Of a stretch of 5,613 bases of DNA, positions 114 through 5,613 are shown one piece after another (position 1 is the first letter of the stretch; every line of letters starts with the position of its first letter). This DNA comes from a virus. The DNA is taken from the IMG/VR virus record IMGVR_UViG_3300045988_015716, one strand, 5' to 3'. The position numbers and the translations under genes were made by a program. The notes beneath the pieces were generated by a model. That model was given only the letters and a program-made list of their open reading frames with translations, made no database searches and was not told the origin of the DNA.

Positions 114-168
114 AGTCCGCCAAGTACCTAACAAGGCAATACTTGGCGGACTTCTTTATATTATATTT
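114..168 (+). terminator. Strong hairpin plus T-rich tail, 10 nt after the VP4 stop; candidate intrinsic terminator or ssDNA structural element
   Basis: Perfect 13-bp stem: agtccgccaagta (114-126) pairs with tacttggcggact (140-152), with a 13-nt loop. It is followed by tctttatattatattt. The loop is large for a classic terminator, hence moderate confidence. Confidence 0.45.
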
Positions 169-227
169 GTTGTAGTCGTAGTAGTAGAGTACGTTGAAAA
201 GTTGAAAACAACAATTTTACAACATAG

Positions 228-254
228 ATAAATTATTTTTATATAAAATTATAT
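228..254. other. 27-nt pure A/T tract between iteron clusters 1 and 2 (possible DNA-unwinding element)
   Basis: ataaattatttttatataaaattatat contains no G or C. It is flanked by GTTGAAA clusters. Confidence 0.5.
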
Positions 255-299
255 GTTGAAAGAAATGTTGAAAAATTGTTGAATTGTTGAGAATATGAC

Positions 300-327
300 A
301 AGTTGCACAAAAAGCATTGTGCAACTT
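300..327. promoter_or_regulatory. 11-bp perfect hairpin between iteron clusters 2 and 3; candidate origin stem-loop
   Basis: aagttgcacaa (300-310) pairs with ttgtgcaactt (317-327), with loop aaagca (311-316). The 3' arm plus downstream sequence reads CAACTTTATGTTGAAAAC (322-339). Confidence 0.6.
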
Positions 328-392
328 TATGTTGAAAACTTGTTGAAAGTGTTGAAAGTGTTGAAAACACGCCTGCAGCGGGCATCTGTGGG

Positions 393-426
393 ATTTGTCA
401 AAAGTCACAAGTGACCCTTGACAAAT
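393..426. promoter_or_regulatory. 34-bp nested palindrome overlapping the -35 element (operator-like, or an ssDNA hairpin)
   Basis: atttgtcaa (393-401) is the reverse complement of ttgacaaat (418-426). An inner palindrome gtcac-aa-gtgac lies at 404-415. 14 of 16 possible pairs form. Confidence 0.55.
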
Positions 427-446
427 CGCACAGAAACAAGTAAAAT
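418..446 (+). promoter_or_regulatory. Near-consensus sigma70-type promoter driving the peptidase and downstream genes
   Basis: TTGACA (418-423), a 17-nt spacer, then TAAAAT (441-446). The predicted transcription start near 453 lies just before the SD AAGGAGG (454-460) and the ATG at 468. Confidence 0.55.
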
Positions 447-1557: not shown

Positions 1558-2022
1558 ATGGAGTTTTACAGTGCATTCAATCCGCCTAAAAGCGAACCAA
1601 CGTGTGCAGGAGAAAAAACACGAAAAACTTACAGATGGGCCGAAAACGAAAACGGCGAAAAAGATCTGGTGGAAGACGAAGAAATCAACATCGCAGACGA
1701 GATTGAAAGTTACCATGAAGAAACCAAAATCAGCAACATCATCCGACGAGCAACATTTGACGTAAACGCCGCAAACATGCTTCTCGGCGATAACGGCAAC
1801 AACGGCGCAGACATGACGACAATGCCGGAAAACCTGATGGAAGCGCAAAACATTGTTGTAAAGGCCAAACAGGCATATGCGAACCTAACGCCAAAACAGA
1901 AAGCAGAATTCAACGGAATGAGCGACTTTATGAGAAGCGCAGGGACAGAAGAATGGGCCAAAAAGCTGGGCTTCATCACCGAAAAACCGGCAAAGGAGGA
2001 GCCAGTAAATGAACAGAAATAA
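1558..2022 (+). CDS. VP3 internal scaffolding protein, 154 aa
   Basis: The true start is taken as ATG 1558, with SD AGGAGGA at 1546-1552 and 1 nt after the VP5 stop, rather than the track's 1471. The protein has an acidic centre. The C-terminal ...MPENLMEAQNIVVKAKQAYANLTPKQKAEFNGMSDFM resembles the conserved VP3 motif (MP..x..EAQN...F..LP...R..F.N.P..F). It lies directly upstream of VP1 and overlaps it by 14 nt. Confidence 0.75.
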   Translation: MEFYSAFNPPKSEPTCAGEKTRKTYRWAENENGEKDLVEDEEINIADEIESYHEETKISNIIRRATFDVNAANMLLGDNGNNGADMTTMPENLMEAQNIVVKAKQAYANLTPKQKAEFNGMSDFMRSAGTEEWAKKLGFITEKPAKEEPVNEQK

Positions 2023-3700
2023 CGAAAGACATTTCAACAACATTCCGCAGATGAAGACAAGCCGAAGCCGTTTCAAGATGAAGCAGGACATCAAGCTCAC
2101 ACTGGATGCAGGCAACCTTATTCCATTTTACGTAGCAGAAACGTTACCGGGAGACACTTTCAGCGTAGATACCAAGGGCATTTGCAGAATGGCCACGCCA
2201 ATCTATCCGGTGATGGATAACTGCTATCTGGACATCTATTACTTCCATGTACCTATGCGAATTGTATGGGACCACGCAAAACAGTTCTTCGGTGAAAACG
2301 ACAGCACACCATGGACACAGCAGACAGAATACAAAATCCCAAAACTCAAAATCCAAGGAAGCGAAGGAGCAAAAACTGACCAAAAAATTCCACACGAGGG
2401 AAGCATTGCGGATTATTTCGGAATTCCAATCAATCTTACAACCGAAAAAGGTCTTAATGTAAAAGGAGAAATTAACGCACTACCGTTTAGAGCTTATGCC
2501 AAAATCTGGAATGAATGGTTTCGAGACCAAAATGTAGACAACCCAGCAATCTGCCCAACTGGAGACGATACAGAAAGAATGGCCATCGGAGGAGAATGGG
2601 GAAAACTCACAAAAAACGACATTCTTAAAAATGCATACAAAGGTTCAGAGCCACTGTGGGTAAATAAGTTCCATGACAGGTTCACAAGCGCTTTGCCGTT
2701 CCCTCAAAAAGGCGAAGCAACGCTAATTCCAATGAGCGGAAACGCACAAGTATATCTCGGACAAAACATCGGAGACAAAAGTACCGACACAATCTATCTC
2801 CGAAATTACACAAACAACATTCAGGGTGACCAAGTAGCACAGGCGTACAACATGAACGGAAACGCAGTGCTGAAAGGCGCACAAAGCAAAACAGGAGAAT
2901 CATTAAGCGTAAGCAACAACCTTTATGCAGACCTCAGCAACGTAACGGGAGCAACCATCAATGATCTTCGTCAAGCCTTTGCGGTGCAACAGTTCATGGA
3001 AGCCGATGCTAGAGGCGGCACACGTTACCGGGAAATCATCCGCAATCATTTTGGAGTGGACATCGACGATAAAACCGTACAAATCCCAGAATATTTGGGC
3101 GGTCAGCGGTACATGATTAACGTCAATCAGGTCGTACAGACAAGTGCAACAGACAGTAAGAGTCCACAGGGCAACGCCGCCGCAATCTCCGTGACGCCGT
3201 TTATGGAAAACAGCTTTACCAAGAGCTTCCAAGAGCACGGTTATGTAATTGGCGTATGCTGTATCCGAAATGATAACACGTATCAGCAGGGCATTGAAAA
3301 GCTTTGGAGTCGAACCGAAAAATTTGACTTCTACTGGCCAGAATTTGCACATCTAGGAGAGCAGGCAATCCTTAACAAAGAAATCTATGTACAGGGAACC
3401 GAAGACGATGAAAAGGCGTTCGGCTATCAGGAGGCATACAGCGAATACCGAATGACGCCTAACCGTGTATGCGGTGCATTCCGAAGCAACGCCACACAGT
3501 CGTTGGATGCATGGCACTATGCAGACAACTACAAAAGCCTTCCGACATTGTCGCAGGAATGGCTTGCAACGGACAAATCCGTCATTGACCGAACAATTGC
3601 AGTGCAGAACCAACCGCAATTTATCATGGACGTACTTGTAGAAAACGACGCAGTCAGACCCATGCCAATCTACGGCACGCCAGGTCTGACCAAACTGTAA
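2009..3700 (+). CDS. VP1 major capsid protein (Microviridae F/VP1 family), 563 aa
   Basis: SD AAGGAGGA at 1993-2000. The N-terminus SRSRFKMKQDIKLTLDAGNLIPFYVAETLPGDTF and the block INDLRQAFAVQQFMEADARGGTRYREIIRNHFGV are hallmark conserved microvirus capsid motifs. The size is typical of gokushovirus VP1. Confidence 0.95.
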   Translation: MNRNNERHFNNIPQMKTSRSRFKMKQDIKLTLDAGNLIPFYVAETLPGDTFSVDTKGICRMATPIYPVMDNCYLDIYYFHVPMRIVWDHAKQFFGENDSTPWTQQTEYKIPKLKIQGSEGAKTDQKIPHEGSIADYFGIPINLTTEKGLNVKGEINALPFRAYAKIWNEWFRDQNVDNPAICPTGDDTERMAIGGEWGKLTKNDILKNAYKGSEPLWVNKFHDRFTSALPFPQKGEATLIPMSGNAQVYLGQNIGDKSTDTIYLRNYTNNIQGDQVAQAYNMNGNAVLKGAQSKTGESLSVSNNLYADLSNVTGATINDLRQAFAVQQFMEADARGGTRYREIIRNHFGVDIDDKTVQIPEYLGGQRYMINVNQVVQTSATDSKSPQGNAAAISVTPFMENSFTKSFQEHGYVIGVCCIRNDNTYQQGIEKLWSRTEKFDFYWPEFAHLGEQAILNKEIYVQGTEDDEKAFGYQEAYSEYRMTPNRVCGAFRSNATQSLDAWHYADNYKSLPTLSQEWLATDKSVIDRTIAVQNQPQFIMDVLVENDAVRPMPIYGTPGLTKL

Positions 3701-3736: not shown

Positions 3737-4615
3737 ATGGGACTCTTAGGAGCAATTGCAAGTGCAGTAATACCAAGCATTATTAACTACGGAGTAGGCA
3801 AATTATTTGGAAGTTCTAATACCTACGGACAAACAAGCAACCAAAACAGCCAAAGTAATGCAGGAAATTGGTCAAGCGGAGGAGGAATCAGCCAAGGCTA
3901 TGGCTACGGATGGAGCCAAGGCGGAACGAATGACGCAGTACAAAACCAAACATTACAAAACCAGTTTAACCGCAATTTAACGAGCATGGGCGCACAAGGC
4001 ATTGCAAATGCACTTGGAGCAGGTGCACAAATGCTGTATAATTACGGAATGGCAAACAAGCAAGCGGGGTTCAACGCAAGCCAAAACAAAATCGCAATGG
4101 ACTACAATTCCGCAGAAGCACAAAAAAACCGTGACTGGCAAGAAATGATGTCAAATACCGCATACCAGAGAGCAATGGCAGACATGAAAGCGGCAGGGCT
4201 TAACCCTATCTTAGCGGCAAATCTTGGAGGAGCAAGCACACCAGGAGGAGCAGTAGGAACAATCTCAGGTGCAAGCATGGGATTGCAGGGAGCAAGCGCC
4301 GCCAGCATCTCAGCGCTTGGCAATGGAGTACTGGGAAGTAACTACAACATGAGCCAAAACGAAAGCTGGAATATGAGCCAATGGCAGCAGATTTCAGAGG
4401 GATTTTCCAATATGATCTCAACTGGAAGCAGTACACCAACAAAGTTGAAAGGTGTAGTAAATGATGTCATTGACAGCGCCGCAAAAGGTGCACAAGGCGC
4501 AGGAAGACAGAAAAAAGGCGTAAAAAAAGCCGCAGAAAGAAGCACATCAACGGCCGGAGCACGCTTTGGAGAGGGCGCAACAAAGCCCGGCAAAAACGGA
4601 TATACAGGAGGATAA
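3737..4615 (+). CDS. VP2 minor capsid / DNA pilot protein, 292 aa
   Basis: The conserved block AEAQKNRDWQEMMSNTAYQRAMADMKAAGLNPILAA is typical of gokushovirus VP2. The N-terminus is a hydrophobic helix (GLLGAIASAVIPSIINYGVGKLFG), followed by a G/S/N/Q-rich region. It lies after VP1. Confidence 0.85.
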   Translation: MGLLGAIASAVIPSIINYGVGKLFGSSNTYGQTSNQNSQSNAGNWSSGGGISQGYGYGWSQGGTNDAVQNQTLQNQFNRNLTSMGAQGIANALGAGAQMLYNYGMANKQAGFNASQNKIAMDYNSAEAQKNRDWQEMMSNTAYQRAMADMKAAGLNPILAANLGGASTPGGAVGTISGASMGLQGASAASISALGNGVLGSNYNMSQNESWNMSQWQQISEGFSNMISTGSSTPTKLKGVVNDVIDSAAKGAQGAGRQKKGVKKAAERSTSTAGARFGEGATKPGKNGYTGG

Positions 4616-4618
4616 CAG

Positions 4619-5613
4619 ATGGGGTGCTATAAACCGTTAATTCGGTTTTATGTGCCCGACGATCCGGAAGCGTCTGGGCACATTTACACGCTCAGACGCT
4701 TTGCCGTTGAACGGGCAAAAAATCCTAAACTCACATACGAAGATTTAATTTACAGAAAAGACGTGATGTTGATCCCATGCGGGCAGTGTATTGGATGCAA
4801 AATCCAAAAACGGCAAGACTGGGCAACCCGCATTGAAATGGAGGCAAAAACATGGCCGAAAGAATCGGTCTGGTTTGTTACGCTGACTTACGACAATGAA
4901 CACATTCCCGGAGTAAATCACGAAACAGGCGAAGTAGTAAGGGGTGCAATGTATCTGAGACGCAAAAAGGAGCCTGAATTAGCCGTTAATCAAACACTCT
5001 GGTATGAAGACATTCAAAACTTCTTAAAACGTCTCAGAAAGGCTTACAGCGGCCAATTACGCTATTTCGTAGCTGGAGAGTACGGAGAAAGAACAGGAAG
5101 ACCACACTATCACATGATATTATTTGGTTACCAGCCGGAAAAACTTGAACCATACAGCAAAGTGAAGCCAGACGAATACATGGTTGATAGCAGAATAACA
5201 AGATGCTGGGGGTTAGGCATCCATAACCTCATCAATCCGACACAAGGCGGCTACAGCTATGTAGCAGGATACGTAACCAAAAAATTCGATGACGAGACAC
5301 TAGAACACATCAAAAACGGACTACAGCCACCATTCGCACAAATGAGCAGAAATCCGGGTCTTGGATATGAGTACTACCAAGAACACAAAGAAGAAATCTG
5401 GAAAAAAGGATACATCCAACTAGACAACGGAAAACGAGCCAGTATTCCTAGGTATTTCCAAGAAATGCAAAGAATAGAAGACCCTCGAGTACTTTGGGAG
5501 CTAAAAAAACAAAATCAGCAAAGGGCAATAGACAAAACAAAAGATATGCTTGGTAGGACAGACGTGCCATACGAAGACTATCTAAAAGCAAAAGAACAAG
5601 CAGTAAAAAAAAC
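4619..5613 (+). CDS. VP4 replication initiator (HUH rolling-circle endonuclease, phiX174 protein A-like). Partial in the window: it continues through the circular junction to base 104, for 339 aa in total
   Basis: SD AGGAGGA at 4606-4612 lies 6 nt before the ATG at 4619. My manual translation shows no stop up to 5613. Motifs found: PCGQCIGC (4775-4798), motif 1 FVTLTY (4874-4891), HUH motif HYH (5105-5113), and the double-tyrosine motif YVAGYVTKK (5258-5284; compare YVAKYVNK in phiX174 protein A). Confidence 0.93.
   Translation, partial: MGCYKPLIRFYVPDDPEASGHIYTLRRFAVERAKNPKLTYEDLIYRKDVMLIPCGQCIGCKIQKRQDWATRIEMEAKTWPKESVWFVTLTYDNEHIPGVNHETGEVVRGAMYLRRKKEPELAVNQTLWYEDIQNFLKRLRKAYSGQLRYFVAGEYGERTGRPHYHMILFGYQPEKLEPYSKVKPDEYMVDSRITRCWGLGIHNLINPTQGGYSYVAGYVTKKFDDETLEHIKNGLQPPFAQMSRNPGLGYEYYQEHKEEIWKKGYIQLDNGKRASIPRYFQEMQRIEDPRVLWELKKQNQQRAIDKTKDMLGRTDVPYEDYLKAKEQAVKK
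5535..5613. repeat. Terminal redundancy, right copy (identical to 1-79)
   Basis: See the left copy. The offset is 5,534 nt. Confidence 0.95.

Follow-up and report, generated by a model that had tools for sequence, protein, structure and literature searches.

Gokushoviruses are the dominant microviruses of animal guts; their origins are undefined, and their known biology is entirely rolling-circle and Rep-driven. What is the role, in such a genome, of a dense array of direct repeats placed in non-coding DNA? The window analyzed here is the whole 5,613-nt stretch of IMG/VR record IMGVR_UViG_3300045988_015716, whose only genes are those for an M15 endolysin, orf73, VP5, VP3, VP1, VP2 and VP4, the last a Rep protein of the rolling-circle HUH type. 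The initial annotation of this stretch assigned the array an origin-like architecture, with Rep iterons, an unwinding tract and a nick-site stem-loop of the kind found in CRESS viruses and rolling-circle plasmids. The origin-like architecture is upheld by our analysis, but the type of origin appears to be different: we consider it likely, judging from sequence comparison, that positions 153-367 are a chromosomal-origin-type DnaA assembly module carried by a clade of gut gokushoviruses. The comparison suggests that this phage and over 100 relatives recruit host DnaA. Our search of the open-access literature turned up no paper that connects DnaA boxes with Microviridae or gokushoviruses, and none that defines a gokushovirus origin.

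Anatomy of the repeat array and its surroundings

Exact copies of GTTGAAA lie on the + strand at 193, 201, 255, 267, 331, 342, 351 and 360, and the one-base variants GTTGAAT (278) and GTTGAGA (286) bring the co-oriented repeats to ten, with start-to-start spacings of 8, 12, 11, 8, 11, 9 and 9 nt. The exact motif has 10 matches genome-wide on both strands, compared with 1.43 expected, a number reached by none of 200 shuffles. The 9-mer TGTKGAWAA, allowing at most one mismatch, has 20 matches (7.3 expected; shuffle maximum, 12), nine of them co-oriented within 192-367. The repeat array is therefore real (within 175 nt, eight exact copies and two near ones; 1.4 expected genome-wide), with the correction that two further copies, not one as first counted, occur elsewhere, at 4444 (+) and 2032-2038 (−). 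Also present as first described are the uninterrupted A/T run at 228-254 and the 11-bp hairpin, which is perfectly paired (arms 300-310 and 317-327, 6-nt loop); the 3' arm of this hairpin is itself a degenerate eleventh box.

The array forms half of a larger non-coding module that spans 215 nt (153-367; Table 1). Read 5' to 3', the module opens with an A/T tract and (TAG)n; after a gap of 4 nt come an 8-nt box and, directly adjoining it, one of 9 nt, and then a spacer of 44 nt and co-oriented box arrays. The TAG block (TTGTTGTAGTCGTAGTAGTAG, 167-187) was overlooked in the initial annotation and is the best-conserved part of the element in relatives; it is trio-like because 5'-TAG-3' equals 3'-GAT-5'. 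The spacer includes the 228-254 A/T run together with one reverse box-like site (216-224). The run had been proposed as the unwinding element; it is rather part of a fixed-length spacer and not the likely unwinding site.

Table 1. Features of the module and its flanks, in window coordinates
Positions	Strand	Feature	Remarks
114-152	+	GC-rich 13-bp hairpin followed by a T-rich run	arms 114-126 / 140-152, 100% complementary
153-166	+	A/T tract TCTTTATATTATAT, candidate unwinding tract	directly 5' of the TAG block; 13/14 A/T
167-187	+	TTGTTG TAG TCG TAG TAG TAG, DnaA-trio-like block	three perfect trios adjoin the boxes
188-191	+	4-nt gap AGTA, trios to first box	
192-208	+	tandem box pair CGTTGAAA (8 nt) abutting AGTTGAAAA (9 nt)	slots +4, +12
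209-253	+	A/T-rich spacer, 44 nt between box ends	fixed length, variable sequence
254-293	+	box cluster 2: TGTTGAAAG (254), TGTTGAAAA (266), TGTTGAATT (277), TGTTGAGAA (285)	slots +66, +78, +89, +97
300-327	+	perfect 11-bp hairpin with degenerate box TGTGCAACT at 318-326	slot +130
330-367	+	box cluster 3: TGTTGAAAA (330), TGTTGAAAG (341), TGTTGAAAG (350), TGTTGAAAA (359)	slots +142, +153, +162, +171
385-446	+	24-nt inverted repeat 385-408 / 411-434 and promoter TTGACA-17-TAAAAT (418-446)	outside the conserved module

On the left, the GC-rich hairpin starts 10 nt past the VP4 stop codon (102-104) and is likely the VP4 terminator, marking the left boundary of the module; in relatives it is replaced by GC-rich palindromic (CG/CA)n tracts. 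On the right, the inverted repeat overlaps the −35 element of the only strong sigma-70-type promoter of the genome, which drives the M15 endolysin gene (ATG at 468). The stretch 385-446 shows no conservation in relatives.

Conservation among gut gokushoviruses

The spacing of the module is base-exact in at least 106 gut gokushovirus genomes, in which the Rep proteins are 33-50% identical. By blastn, 152-372 is the sole non-coding stretch conserved, with 68-89% identity, in 41 GenBank gokushovirus records. A comparison of motif, copy number and phasing among relatives was strongly positive: in 88 elements the box slots, counted from the TAG block, are fixed at +4, +12, +66, +78, +89, +97, +130, +142, +153, +162 and +171, while the spacers vary. 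The TAG block is invariant, bar two bases, in all elements examined, including sets not chosen for this block; in the single TAG-TAA-TAG variant of the family the central A is retained. An invariant (AAC)TTGTTG lies 5' of the trios and is left unexplained by the origin model.

The flanks of the TAG block are constrained as well. The 14 nt on its 5' side have a median A+T content of 93% in the 88 family elements, and the next 50 nt upstream 42%. The gap between trios and boxes is 4 nt in almost all of these elements, most commonly GGAG, with G making up 47% of gap bases. Slot +66 is filled in 87 of 88, across a spacer with a median A+T content of 75% and a sequence that is often locally palindromic. 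At position 4, the boxes themselves carry T or G and no other base. Slots +4, +78 and +142 switch among TGTTGAAAA, TGTGGAAAA and canonical TGTGGATAA, with T/G counts of 44/44, 60/27 and 39/33, respectively: slot +4 is of the TGTGGAAAA type in 44/88 elements, slot +78 is canonical in 20 relatives, and slot +142 is TGTGGAAAA in 31. This family consensus, TGTGGAAAA, is one mismatch from the canonical box. A Spo0A '0A box' (TGTCGAA) was also considered and rejected, given that it occurs once in 88 elements and that position 4 is T or G. The 300-327 hairpin is kept in part, with TTGTGCAAC present in about 60-85% of relatives and a 5' arm and loop that vary or are absent.

The element usually lies just past the VP4 gene, 36-366 nt from its stop codon, and in 14 of 79 genomes it is inverted with respect to every gene. 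Chp2, phiMH2K and SpV4 lack it, as do the cultured gokushoviruses and sister clades, one of the latter with the same genome size; the module is accessory. Judged by the inversions and the absence of a conserved single-strand fold, it behaves as an autonomous duplex-level unit.

Comparison with bacterial chromosomal origins

In bacteria, the basal unwinding system (BUS) comprises one or more DnaA-boxes, a gap of ~4 bp, and then at least three consecutive trios with a central A (preferably 3'-GAT-5') on the 5' tail, with the best trios proximal to the box (Pelliciari 2021, PMC8287927). Order and strand in the phage are the same as in the BUS of B. subtilis, formed by incC DnaA-boxes 6 and 7 plus trios (Richardson 2016, Pelliciari 2021, 2023). 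The window reads TAG TCG TAG TAG TAG at 173-187, with the three box-adjacent trios perfect; the gap follows at 188-191, the boxes start at 192 and 200, and the distal box is 12 nt from the trios, compared with about 12-13 in the bacterial system. Beyond the trios, the DNA is AT-rich (153-166), which is also where the AT-rich region of an oriC unwinding system is located. The combination of a 4-nt gap with tandem boxes of 8 and 9 nt is the same in the window as in B. subtilis, S. aureus, C. acetobutylicum and Acetohalobium. The origin of B. subtilis reads 5'-..TAGTAG GGCC TGTGGATT TGTGGATAA, and that of C. acetobutylicum 5'-TAGTAGTAG GGAG TGTGGATT TGTTGATAA (Table S1, PMC8287927). The phage family consensus, TAGTAGTAG GGAG TGTGGAAA AGTTGAAAA, is identical to the C. 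acetobutylicum origin at 31 of 39 positions, the family median at 28/39, and the window at 26/39. Many dnaA-dnaN origins also have further boxes at +66, +78 and +97, as in the phage. The identity of layout with real chromosomal origins is thus, like the anatomy and conservation of the module, a matter of direct observation.

There are also clear differences. The phage module, unlike the BUS, resides on a ~5.5-kb single-stranded-DNA genome with no dnaA or dnaN, so it is not a chromosomal oriC; the claim is of the same kind of module in a different replicon. The phage array is more regular than the usual BUS, with 10 or 11 boxes in a single orientation, almost all of them the T-variant TGTTGAAAA. 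Its A/T tract is just 14 nt, shorter than the AT-rich 27-mer of B. subtilis, and it has the extra TTGTTG 5' of the trios. Under the published rule, a box lies within 0-16 bp of the trios and has at most 2 mismatches to TTATCCACA or to a species-specific motif (PMC8287927). The trio-proximal boxes of the window, CGTTGAAAA and AGTTGAAAA, show 3 mismatches to TGTGGATAA, the E. coli consensus, and 1 to TGTTGAAAA, either of which standards may not be that of the host; they fall within the rule only when the Clostridial/Mollicute variant is the standard.

The sequence TGTTGAAAA has been noted before as a variant DnaA box, in Ruminococcus, Clostridia and Mollicutes. The origin of Ruminococcus albus 7 contains TGTTGAAAA-ACC-TGTTGAAAA, and a Butyrivibrio origin box reads TGTTGAAA. 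TT(T/A)TCAACA is the proposed Mollicute DnaA box (PMC3322544), and 'ttttcaaca' has been quoted from DoriC as a DnaA-box motif used for some species (PMC2671203). We searched metagenomes with a composite pattern taken from the phage, TAGTAGTAG-N4-TGTKGAWWWGTKGAWAA, and obtained 114 non-phage matches, 70 of which include dnaA. In 69 of these 70, the 3' end of dnaA lies 96-286 nt beyond the boxes, which is the position of a dnaA-dnaN origin, and 30 of the chromosomal origins found with the pattern have T-type boxes. G/T and A/T degeneracy had been built into the pattern to admit canonical origins, and its origin matches are therefore partly by design. The register of further boxes is the part of the origin evidence that is independent of the pattern: extra co-oriented boxes are found at +65 to +67 in 40 of the 70 origins, and also at +77/78, +89/90 and +97, in register with the phage. 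In the dnaA-dnaN interval of one gut Clostridia chromosome we found TAGCCGTAGTCTTAG-GGGT-TGTTAAAT-TGTTAAAAA; the L429 strain version, with a GGAT gap and boxes TGTTAAAA-AGTTAAAAA, is identical to window 173-208 at 27 of 36 positions.

The metagenomes also yielded a contig, L396, in which a 464-nt microvirus segment is joined to a Clostridia dnaA region. We rejected it as proof of a host, as a possible chimera: its junction is no more than a shared 14-nt GAGTTTTCCACAAA, a second, unexplained junction lies 67 nt short of the contig end, and the insert is missing from six native contigs. A scan of a genome collection with TTGTTGTAGNNGTAGTAGTAG gave, among the matches listed, no host; most of these lie antisense to Thr-rich linker repeats of Ruminococcus and Oscillospiraceae proteins, and the element is carried among them by L239 alone, a microvirus contig of 5.8 kb that was binned with a Prevotella MAG.

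It is instructive to compare the module with other DnaA-dependent systems. The left half of E. coli oriC has a DUE, R1, an IHF site and then an array of low-affinity sites. As in this half-origin, in datA and in the B. subtilis DBCs, the consensus-capable slots of the phage (+4, +78, +142) are flanked by weaker co-oriented sites 8-12 nt apart, and as in E. coli oriC an A/T-rich spacer, of ~44 nt in the phage, splits the origin-proximal box pair from the array. This likeness in affinity hierarchy is one of sequence, and unlike in E. coli oriC no IHF or HU site was identified in the phage module. P1 oriR, pSC101, F, RK2 and R6K are mobile replicons that borrow host DnaA via DnaA boxes; all are theta replicons with one to a few such boxes beside the iterons of a plasmid Rep. 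We know of no report of a chromosomal-type trio block in origin register for any of these. The phage differs from plasmids of the P1/pSC101 type in encoding no second initiator, its own Rep being of the rolling-circle HUH type.

Possible modes of action and their alternatives

How could such a module act in a phage? The mechanism that we favor would take place on the double-stranded replicative form. Host DnaA would bind the co-oriented 9-mers, ten or eleven in number, whose sequence TGTTGAAAA differs from TGTGGATAA by a T in place of G. From the tandem boxes at 192-208, a DnaA-ATP oligomer would be led over the 4-nt gap onto the TAG trios at 173-187, and the duplex would open at the trios and in the adjoining A/T tract. 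Host helicase and primosome could then be loaded at the opened duplex, and the host replisome would copy the replicative form; alternatively, the opening might supply the phage Rep with single-stranded DNA. These steps, from DnaA binding through duplex opening to downstream use, are what we infer from the sequence, and the DnaA reading is directly testable by existing DnaA footprinting and strand-separation assays. The module probably goes back to the dnaA-dnaN oriC of a host among the Bacillota/Clostridia, whether captured from it or modelled on it; this host type also fits the TTGACA-17-TAAAAT promoter and an AAGGAGG ribosome-binding site.

A conserved module with bacterial-origin anatomy would imply a second, host-initiator-dependent step in the replication or persistence of these phages. 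Its sequence would also hint at the hosts of a group for which none is cultured, namely Bacillota/Clostridia whose DnaA boxes are of the T-variant. In addition, a natural DnaA-box/DnaA-trio array that is compact, highly regular and under phage selection provides material for studies of box affinity, box spacing and trio cooperation.

Several points count against an origin function: why a rolling-circle phage would need DnaA to open its DNA is not obvious, and relatives replicate in the absence of the module; every box in this window has T at position 4, and the two trio-proximal ones depart from the E. coli consensus at 3 positions; only 14 nt of A/T tract lie beyond the trios; the (AAC)TTGTTG sequence has no place in the model; and the M15 and orf73 genes co-occur with arrays in one sample (see below), so that a phage-encoded binder is conceivable.

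A bolder form of the proposal is that the captured chromosomal-type origin from a Clostridia host drives DnaA-dependent theta 'minichromosome' replication of the double-stranded form, in parallel to or ahead of VP4 rolling circle. We regard this as possible but doubtful. If true, a microvirus that looks lytic would be able to persist like a plasmid, in a carrier state coupled to the cell cycle of its host, and this would be the first virus known to us to rely on a BUS-type origin of the bacterial kind while encoding no dedicated initiator for that origin.

DnaA might instead bind the array without opening the duplex. The replicative form would then act as a DnaA sink that stops host initiation, as datA and the B. 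subtilis DnaA-box clusters do, or DnaA would serve as a transcription factor coupling a phage promoter to the replication state of the host. DnaA-box clusters do act in titration and autoregulation, the replicon is multicopy and each genome has ten or eleven boxes, the sole strong promoter follows the array at a distance of 50 nt, and the module is dispensable in sister clades. However, neither a sink nor an operator needs TAG trios, an exact 4-nt gap or an A/T tract, and these are the parts most strictly conserved, matching the unwinding module of real origins base for base; moreover, in 14 genomes the array is inverted and lies elsewhere relative to promoters. We therefore consider a role confined to DnaA binding unlikely.

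The model of the initial annotation, in which the repeats are iterons of VP4 at a rolling-circle double-strand origin, with a nick in or near the element at (AAC)TTGTTGTAG or in the hairpin loop, now appears quite improbable. Its appeal lies in the location of the element just after the VP4 gene and in the undefined state of gokushovirus origins, and DnaA opening and Rep nicking could act jointly. CRESS viruses and pMV158-type plasmids, like the phage, combine a hairpin with nearby direct repeats in a small circular HUH-Rep replicon. In contrast to those systems, the phage repeats do not co-vary with Rep: one motif and one register persist across VP4 proteins that are 33-50% identical. The 300-327 hairpin, perfect in the window, has an arm and loop that are variable or missing in relatives. 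Orientation to rep is not fixed, and the inversion in 14/79 genomes means that the nick site would there fall on the non-coding strand. Close relatives with the same Rep family (the sister clade, Chp2, phiMH2K and SpV4) have VP4 and lack the array, and the same layout is found in chromosomes that have no VP4. A search for the VP4 nick site, as a 9- to 11-mer common to the coding strands of array-bearing and array-less clades, returned only words resembling ribosome-binding sites.

The comparison with phiX174, a member of the same virus family, is similar in outcome. The phiX174 origin is a 30-bp sequence inside gene A, nicked at CAACTTG^A, and the AACTTG hexamer found in relatives of the phage recalls this site; the window itself reads ATTTG. 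The first 18 nt of the conserved 30-bp origin (CAACTTGATATTAATAAC...) have 0 matches with up to 3 mismatches, and the phage element is intergenic, about 215 nt long and repeat-based.

Binding of the repeats by a small phage protein such as orf73 (976-1197), as a repressor or in a partition-like centromere akin to the ten-iteron parC of plasmid R1, is very unlikely. In one sample chosen by VP1 similarity, M15 and orf73 co-occur with arrays in 15/15 and 14/15 genomes, respectively, vs 0/29 without arrays, and no known function was found for orf73. Yet 16 of 79 array-bearing genomes, most of the inverted subclade among them, gave no orf73 relative in an iterative profile search. No partition ATPase is present, and the trios, the gap and the identity of layout with chromosomal origins are left unexplained.

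Still less can be said for action of the element as single-stranded DNA, either as a complementary-strand origin, with hairpins read by RNA polymerase, primase or DnaA as in the 'ABC primosome', or as a packaging signal. The + strand at 105-470 does fold very stably as DNA (−69.5 kcal/mol, z = −10), and a stem of 209-225 with 265-281 would make two boxes double-stranded. This strong fold is peculiar to the present genome: z is −7.5 to −10 for the window alone, whereas 41 diverse family members have a median z of −1.1 (range −7.5 to +0.4), computed against mononucleotide shuffles. The boxes are not consistently paired in the family, orientation flips in 14/79 genomes, and what is conserved is linear sequence and spacing. 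On the basis of the median z we rejected a conserved single-strand structure, a complementary-strand origin and a packaging signal as the function of the family. Rfam covariance models gave three chance-level matches (E 0.3-0.9), none of them in 153-367.

Among the further alternatives raised by the initial annotation, binding sites for a host factor come closest to the evidence, whereas a stack of −35-like TTGAAA or UP-like elements serving the downstream promoter is the least credible reading of all: TTGAAA is one base from TTGACA and the array does lie upstream of that promoter, but no hexamer is paired with a −10 partner, and no promoter-like site is present, on the + strand of 166-367, the array is inverted in 14 genomes, and the conserved unit is a 9-mer that includes the GT 5' of TTGAAA.

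The intergenic repeat array and its conservation

The window begins and ends with the same 79 nt (1-79 = 5535-5613), indicating that it is a circularly permuted, complete gokushovirus genome of ~5534 nt, with the VP4 gene crossing the end-to-start junction. All genes are on the + strand, and the repeat array lies within the sole sizeable intergenic region (105-467).

Genes and intergenic borders of the window
Feature	Position	Strand	Remark
M15 endolysin	468-854	+
orf73	976-1197	+
VP5	1314-1556	+
VP3 scaffold	1471-2022	+
VP1 capsid	2009-3700	+
VP2	3737-4615	+
VP4 Rep	4619 across junction to 104	+
GC-rich hairpin terminator	114-152		left border of intergenic region
sigma-70-type promoter TTGACA-17-TAAAAT	418-446		right border; only strong promoter
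AAGGAGG ribosome-binding site			ahead of ATG at 468

The initial annotation described ten co-oriented repeats, which we recovered as eight exact GTTGAAA copies on the + strand within 193-366 plus GTTGAAT (278) and GTTGAGA (286). GTTGAAA occurs 10 times in the window against 1.43 expected, and none of 200 shuffled sequences reached ten; two copies, rather than the single one claimed, fall outside the region. The A/T run (228-254) and the perfect 11-bp hairpin (300-327) are as described there. The 9-mer TGTKGAWAA (≤1 mismatch) has 20 matches versus 7.3 expected; nine of the 20 lie in 192-367, all in one orientation. The 21 nt at the start of the interval, TTGTTGTAGTCGTAGTAGTAG (167-187, the TAG block), had drawn no comment. 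Read 5' to 3', the module consists of an A/T tract (153-166), TAG TCG TAG TAG TAG (173-187), a 4-nt gap, tandem boxes CGTTGAAA and AGTTGAAAA, a spacer, and the arrays.

With the intergenic region as blastn query, 152-372 and little else matched 41 GenBank gokushovirus records (68-89% identity) from pig, human, monkey, lemur, dog, mink and raccoon faeces. In a five-way alignment divergence falls in the spacers and the two flanks, and the TAG block and repeats are invariant. We obtained further elements from pattern scans and a VP1-based IMG/VR search and analysed 88 distinct elements; a later, complete scan gave about 106 microvirus contigs (4.2-6.1 kb) with the element. The comparison of motif, copy number and phasing among relatives that the initial annotation proposed shows that repeats and box offsets are kept: in all elements, boxes lie at +4, +12, +66, +78, +89, +97, +130 (degenerate), +142, +153, +162 and +171 from the end of the TAG block, and the 44-nt spacer from +12 to +66 is constant in length and variable in sequence. 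Conservation of the TAG block is just as strong in sets that were not chosen for having it, and its one variant, TAG-TAA-TAG, retains the central A. Neither an array nor any other clustered repeat was found in same-size genomes with VP1 43-47% identical, or in Chp2, phiMH2K and SpV4.

Of 79 complete genomes, 65 have the module oriented as in the window, starting 36-366 nt past VP4; in the other 14 it runs opposite to all genes. In a 13-member subclade it lies between VP2 and VP4. The single-strand fold of the window is very stable (z = -10), but the family median is z = -1.1 and boxes are not consistently paired, so a stable fold was rejected as a family property. Because the fold is not conserved and the module is found in either orientation, selection acts on a linear sequence-and-spacing code that works either way round. 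Such a code fits protein assembly on duplex DNA, and it argues against a viral-strand nick site, a complementary-strand origin, and two earlier suggestions, a stack of -35 promoter elements and a packaging signal; packaged-strand polarity in the inverted subclade is an assumption of this argument.

Several local features were also observed. A 17-bp stem peculiar to this genome, and not a family feature, pairs part of the spacer (209-225) with boxes +78/+89 (265-281) at 94% complementarity, and would make two boxes double-stranded when the DNA is single-stranded; 209-225 is also complementary to 328-345. A 24-nt inverted repeat (385-408/411-434, 88% complementary), centred on the inner palindrome GTCAC-AA-GTGAC, overlaps the promoter's -35 hexamer; it looks like an operator or attenuating hairpin and is not conserved in relatives. 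In many relatives the place of the window's 13-bp hairpin terminator is taken by alternating CG/CA repeats (CGCGCGCACGCGCGCGTGTACGCG...) over 40-60 nt. These tracts, palindromic and Z-DNA-prone, lie 20-80 nt upstream of the TAG block (for example 330-400 in relative L001 and 470-520 in relative L003) and directly adjoin the A/T tract.

Comparison with chromosomal origins

[quoted passage not shown] We reversed the Table S1 sequences of that study, which are printed 3'->5', for comparison. The phage consensus is identical to the C. acetobutylicum origin at 31/39 ungapped positions (family median 28/39; window 26/39).

Trios, gap and tandem boxes, 5'->3' (bacterial rows from PMC8287927 Table S1; phage row from this analysis)
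Origin	Trios	Gap	Box 1	Box 2
B. subtilis	..TAGTAG	GGCC	TGTGGATT	TGTGGATAA
S. aureus	TAGTAGTAG	GTGC	TGTGGATT	GGTGGATAA
Acetohalobium	..TAATAG	GGGC	TGTGGATT	TGTGGAAAA
C. acetobutylicum	TAGTAGTAG	GGAG	TGTGGATT	TGTTGATAA
Phage family consensus	TAGTAGTAG	GGAG	TGTGGAAA	AGTTGAAAA

Relative to TTATCCACA in reverse complement, the phage repeat TGTTGAAAA has two substitutions: T for G at position 4 and A for T at position 7, the latter already permitted by the B. subtilis motif. The origin of Ruminococcus albus 7 contains TGTTGAAAA-ACC-TGTTGAAAA and that of Butyrivibrio TGTTGAAA; TGTTGATAA is listed for C. acetobutylicum and C. thermocellum, and two Chlamydia genomes have 'AAAAGTTGT', which is TGTTGAAAA read 3'->5', as their species motif (PMC8287927 Table S1). 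The proposed Mollicute box is TT(T/A)TCAACA (PMC3322544), and 'ttttcaaca' is a DnaA-box motif quoted from DoriC (PMC2671203). At position 4 of the box, the phage family has only T or G: slots +4, +78 and +142, about one per cluster, alternate between TGTTGAAAA and TGTGGAAAA, slot +78 is the canonical TGTGGATAA in 20 genomes, and the remaining slots are strictly T, as are all boxes of the window. This switching is what interchangeable DnaA-box variants of differing strength would be expected to look like. Spo0A-type TGTCGAA is essentially absent from the family's boxes.

A composite pattern made from the phage consensus, TAGTAGTAG-N4-TGTKGAWWWGTKGAWAA, returned 120 stretches from the metagenome collection: six phage copies and 114 others. 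A dnaA gene was detected in 70 of the 114 (tblastn, with a B. subtilis DnaA sequence as query), one dnaA ORF being assigned to Bac_DnaA by Pfam; stretches without dnaA are mostly too short to extend to it. Sixty-nine of the 70 dnaA genes are encoded on the opposite strand and terminate 96-286 nt (median 185) past the boxes, which is the Bacillota dnaA-dnaN origin position. One or both boxes are T-variants in 30/114. Since G/T and A/T degeneracy was built into the pattern, it matches origins partly by construction; the informative result, independent of the pattern, is that the next co-oriented boxes of the chromosomal origins lie at +65 to +67 (40/70), +77/78, +89/90, +97 and +160/168, the register of the phage. 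Aligned in this register, chromosomal and phage sequences correspond element by element. An abundant gut Clostridia bacterium (six native contigs) carries TAGCCGTAGTCTTAG-GGGT-TGTTAAAT-TGTTAAAAA in its dnaA to dnaN interval and a mixture of TTATCCACA, TTTTCCACA, TGTTGATAA and TTTCAACA in its rpmH-dnaA spacer; the version in strain L429, with gap GGAT and boxes TGTTAAAA-AGTTAAAAA, is identical to window 173-208 at 27/36 positions. The invariant TTGTTG 5' of the trios (AACTTGTTG in most relatives) is not accounted for by the origin model.

Plasmid and phage origins with DnaA boxes are well known. Our literature searches found no relevant report combining Microviridae or gokushoviruses with DnaA or DnaA boxes, and no link between DnaA-trios and any phage genome; a complete trio/box module of chromosomal type on a single-stranded-DNA phage with rolling-circle replication appears to be previously undescribed.

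Possible use of the module by the phage

By analogy with the chromosomal module, whose established behaviour this is and from which we infer it for the phage, host DnaA would occupy the boxes on the replicative form, the tandem pair (192-208) would guide a DnaA-ATP oligomer onto the TAG trios, and the duplex would open at the trios and the 14-nt A/T tract. As the use of this opening we rank first the loading of host helicase and primosome, after which the host replisome would amplify or maintain the replicative form, and second, exposure of single-stranded DNA for VP4. Third comes titration of DnaA, or transcriptional coupling, with no productive opening. That trios, gap and A/T tract are strictly conserved favours real opening over binding alone. 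A much less probable alternative is that the array would be bound by a phage-encoded protein. In a sample chosen by VP1 similarity, the M15 endolysin was present in 15/15 and orf73 in 14/15 array-bearing genomes, and both in 0/29 array-less sister genomes, so that module, peptidoglycan peptidase and orf73 may have been acquired jointly; 16 of 79 array-bearing genomes, however, have no detectable orf73.

Modules on other contigs

One metagenome contig (L396:1-800; compare L429:2489-3000) has 67 nt of unexplained origin, then a 464-nt microvirus segment (VP4 3' end, terminator and whole DnaA-box module; 97% identical to sequences L029 and L068), then the dnaA-dnaN-recF-gyrB-gyrA region of the abundant gut Clostridia bacterium. 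Phage and chromosome meet in a shared 14-nt GAGTTTTCCACAAA within a DnaA-box cluster, and the insert is missing from the six native contigs; L396 is either an assembly/amplification chimera or a recombinant formed at oriC.

Matches to the TAG-block pattern in Ruminococcus/Oscillospiraceae genomes (L125-L244) were discarded as antisense of Thr-rich linker coding repeats, unrelated to the element; such (GTA/GTT)n runs are common in both groups among the matches listed, and are a trap for pattern searches.

Seventeen larger 'viral' IMG/VR contigs (9-140 kb, including L437, L463, L443, L495, L500, L513, L521 and L480/L504/L514) bear the same composite of TAG trios, 4-nt gap and tandem boxes, some using TGTTGAAAAGTTGAAAA. 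Several also have co-oriented box arrays at +55, +67, +78, +90 and +101, and no dnaA within the stretch retrieved. These contigs may be further mobile elements that have an origin-type module, or else bacterial fragments wrongly classed as viral.
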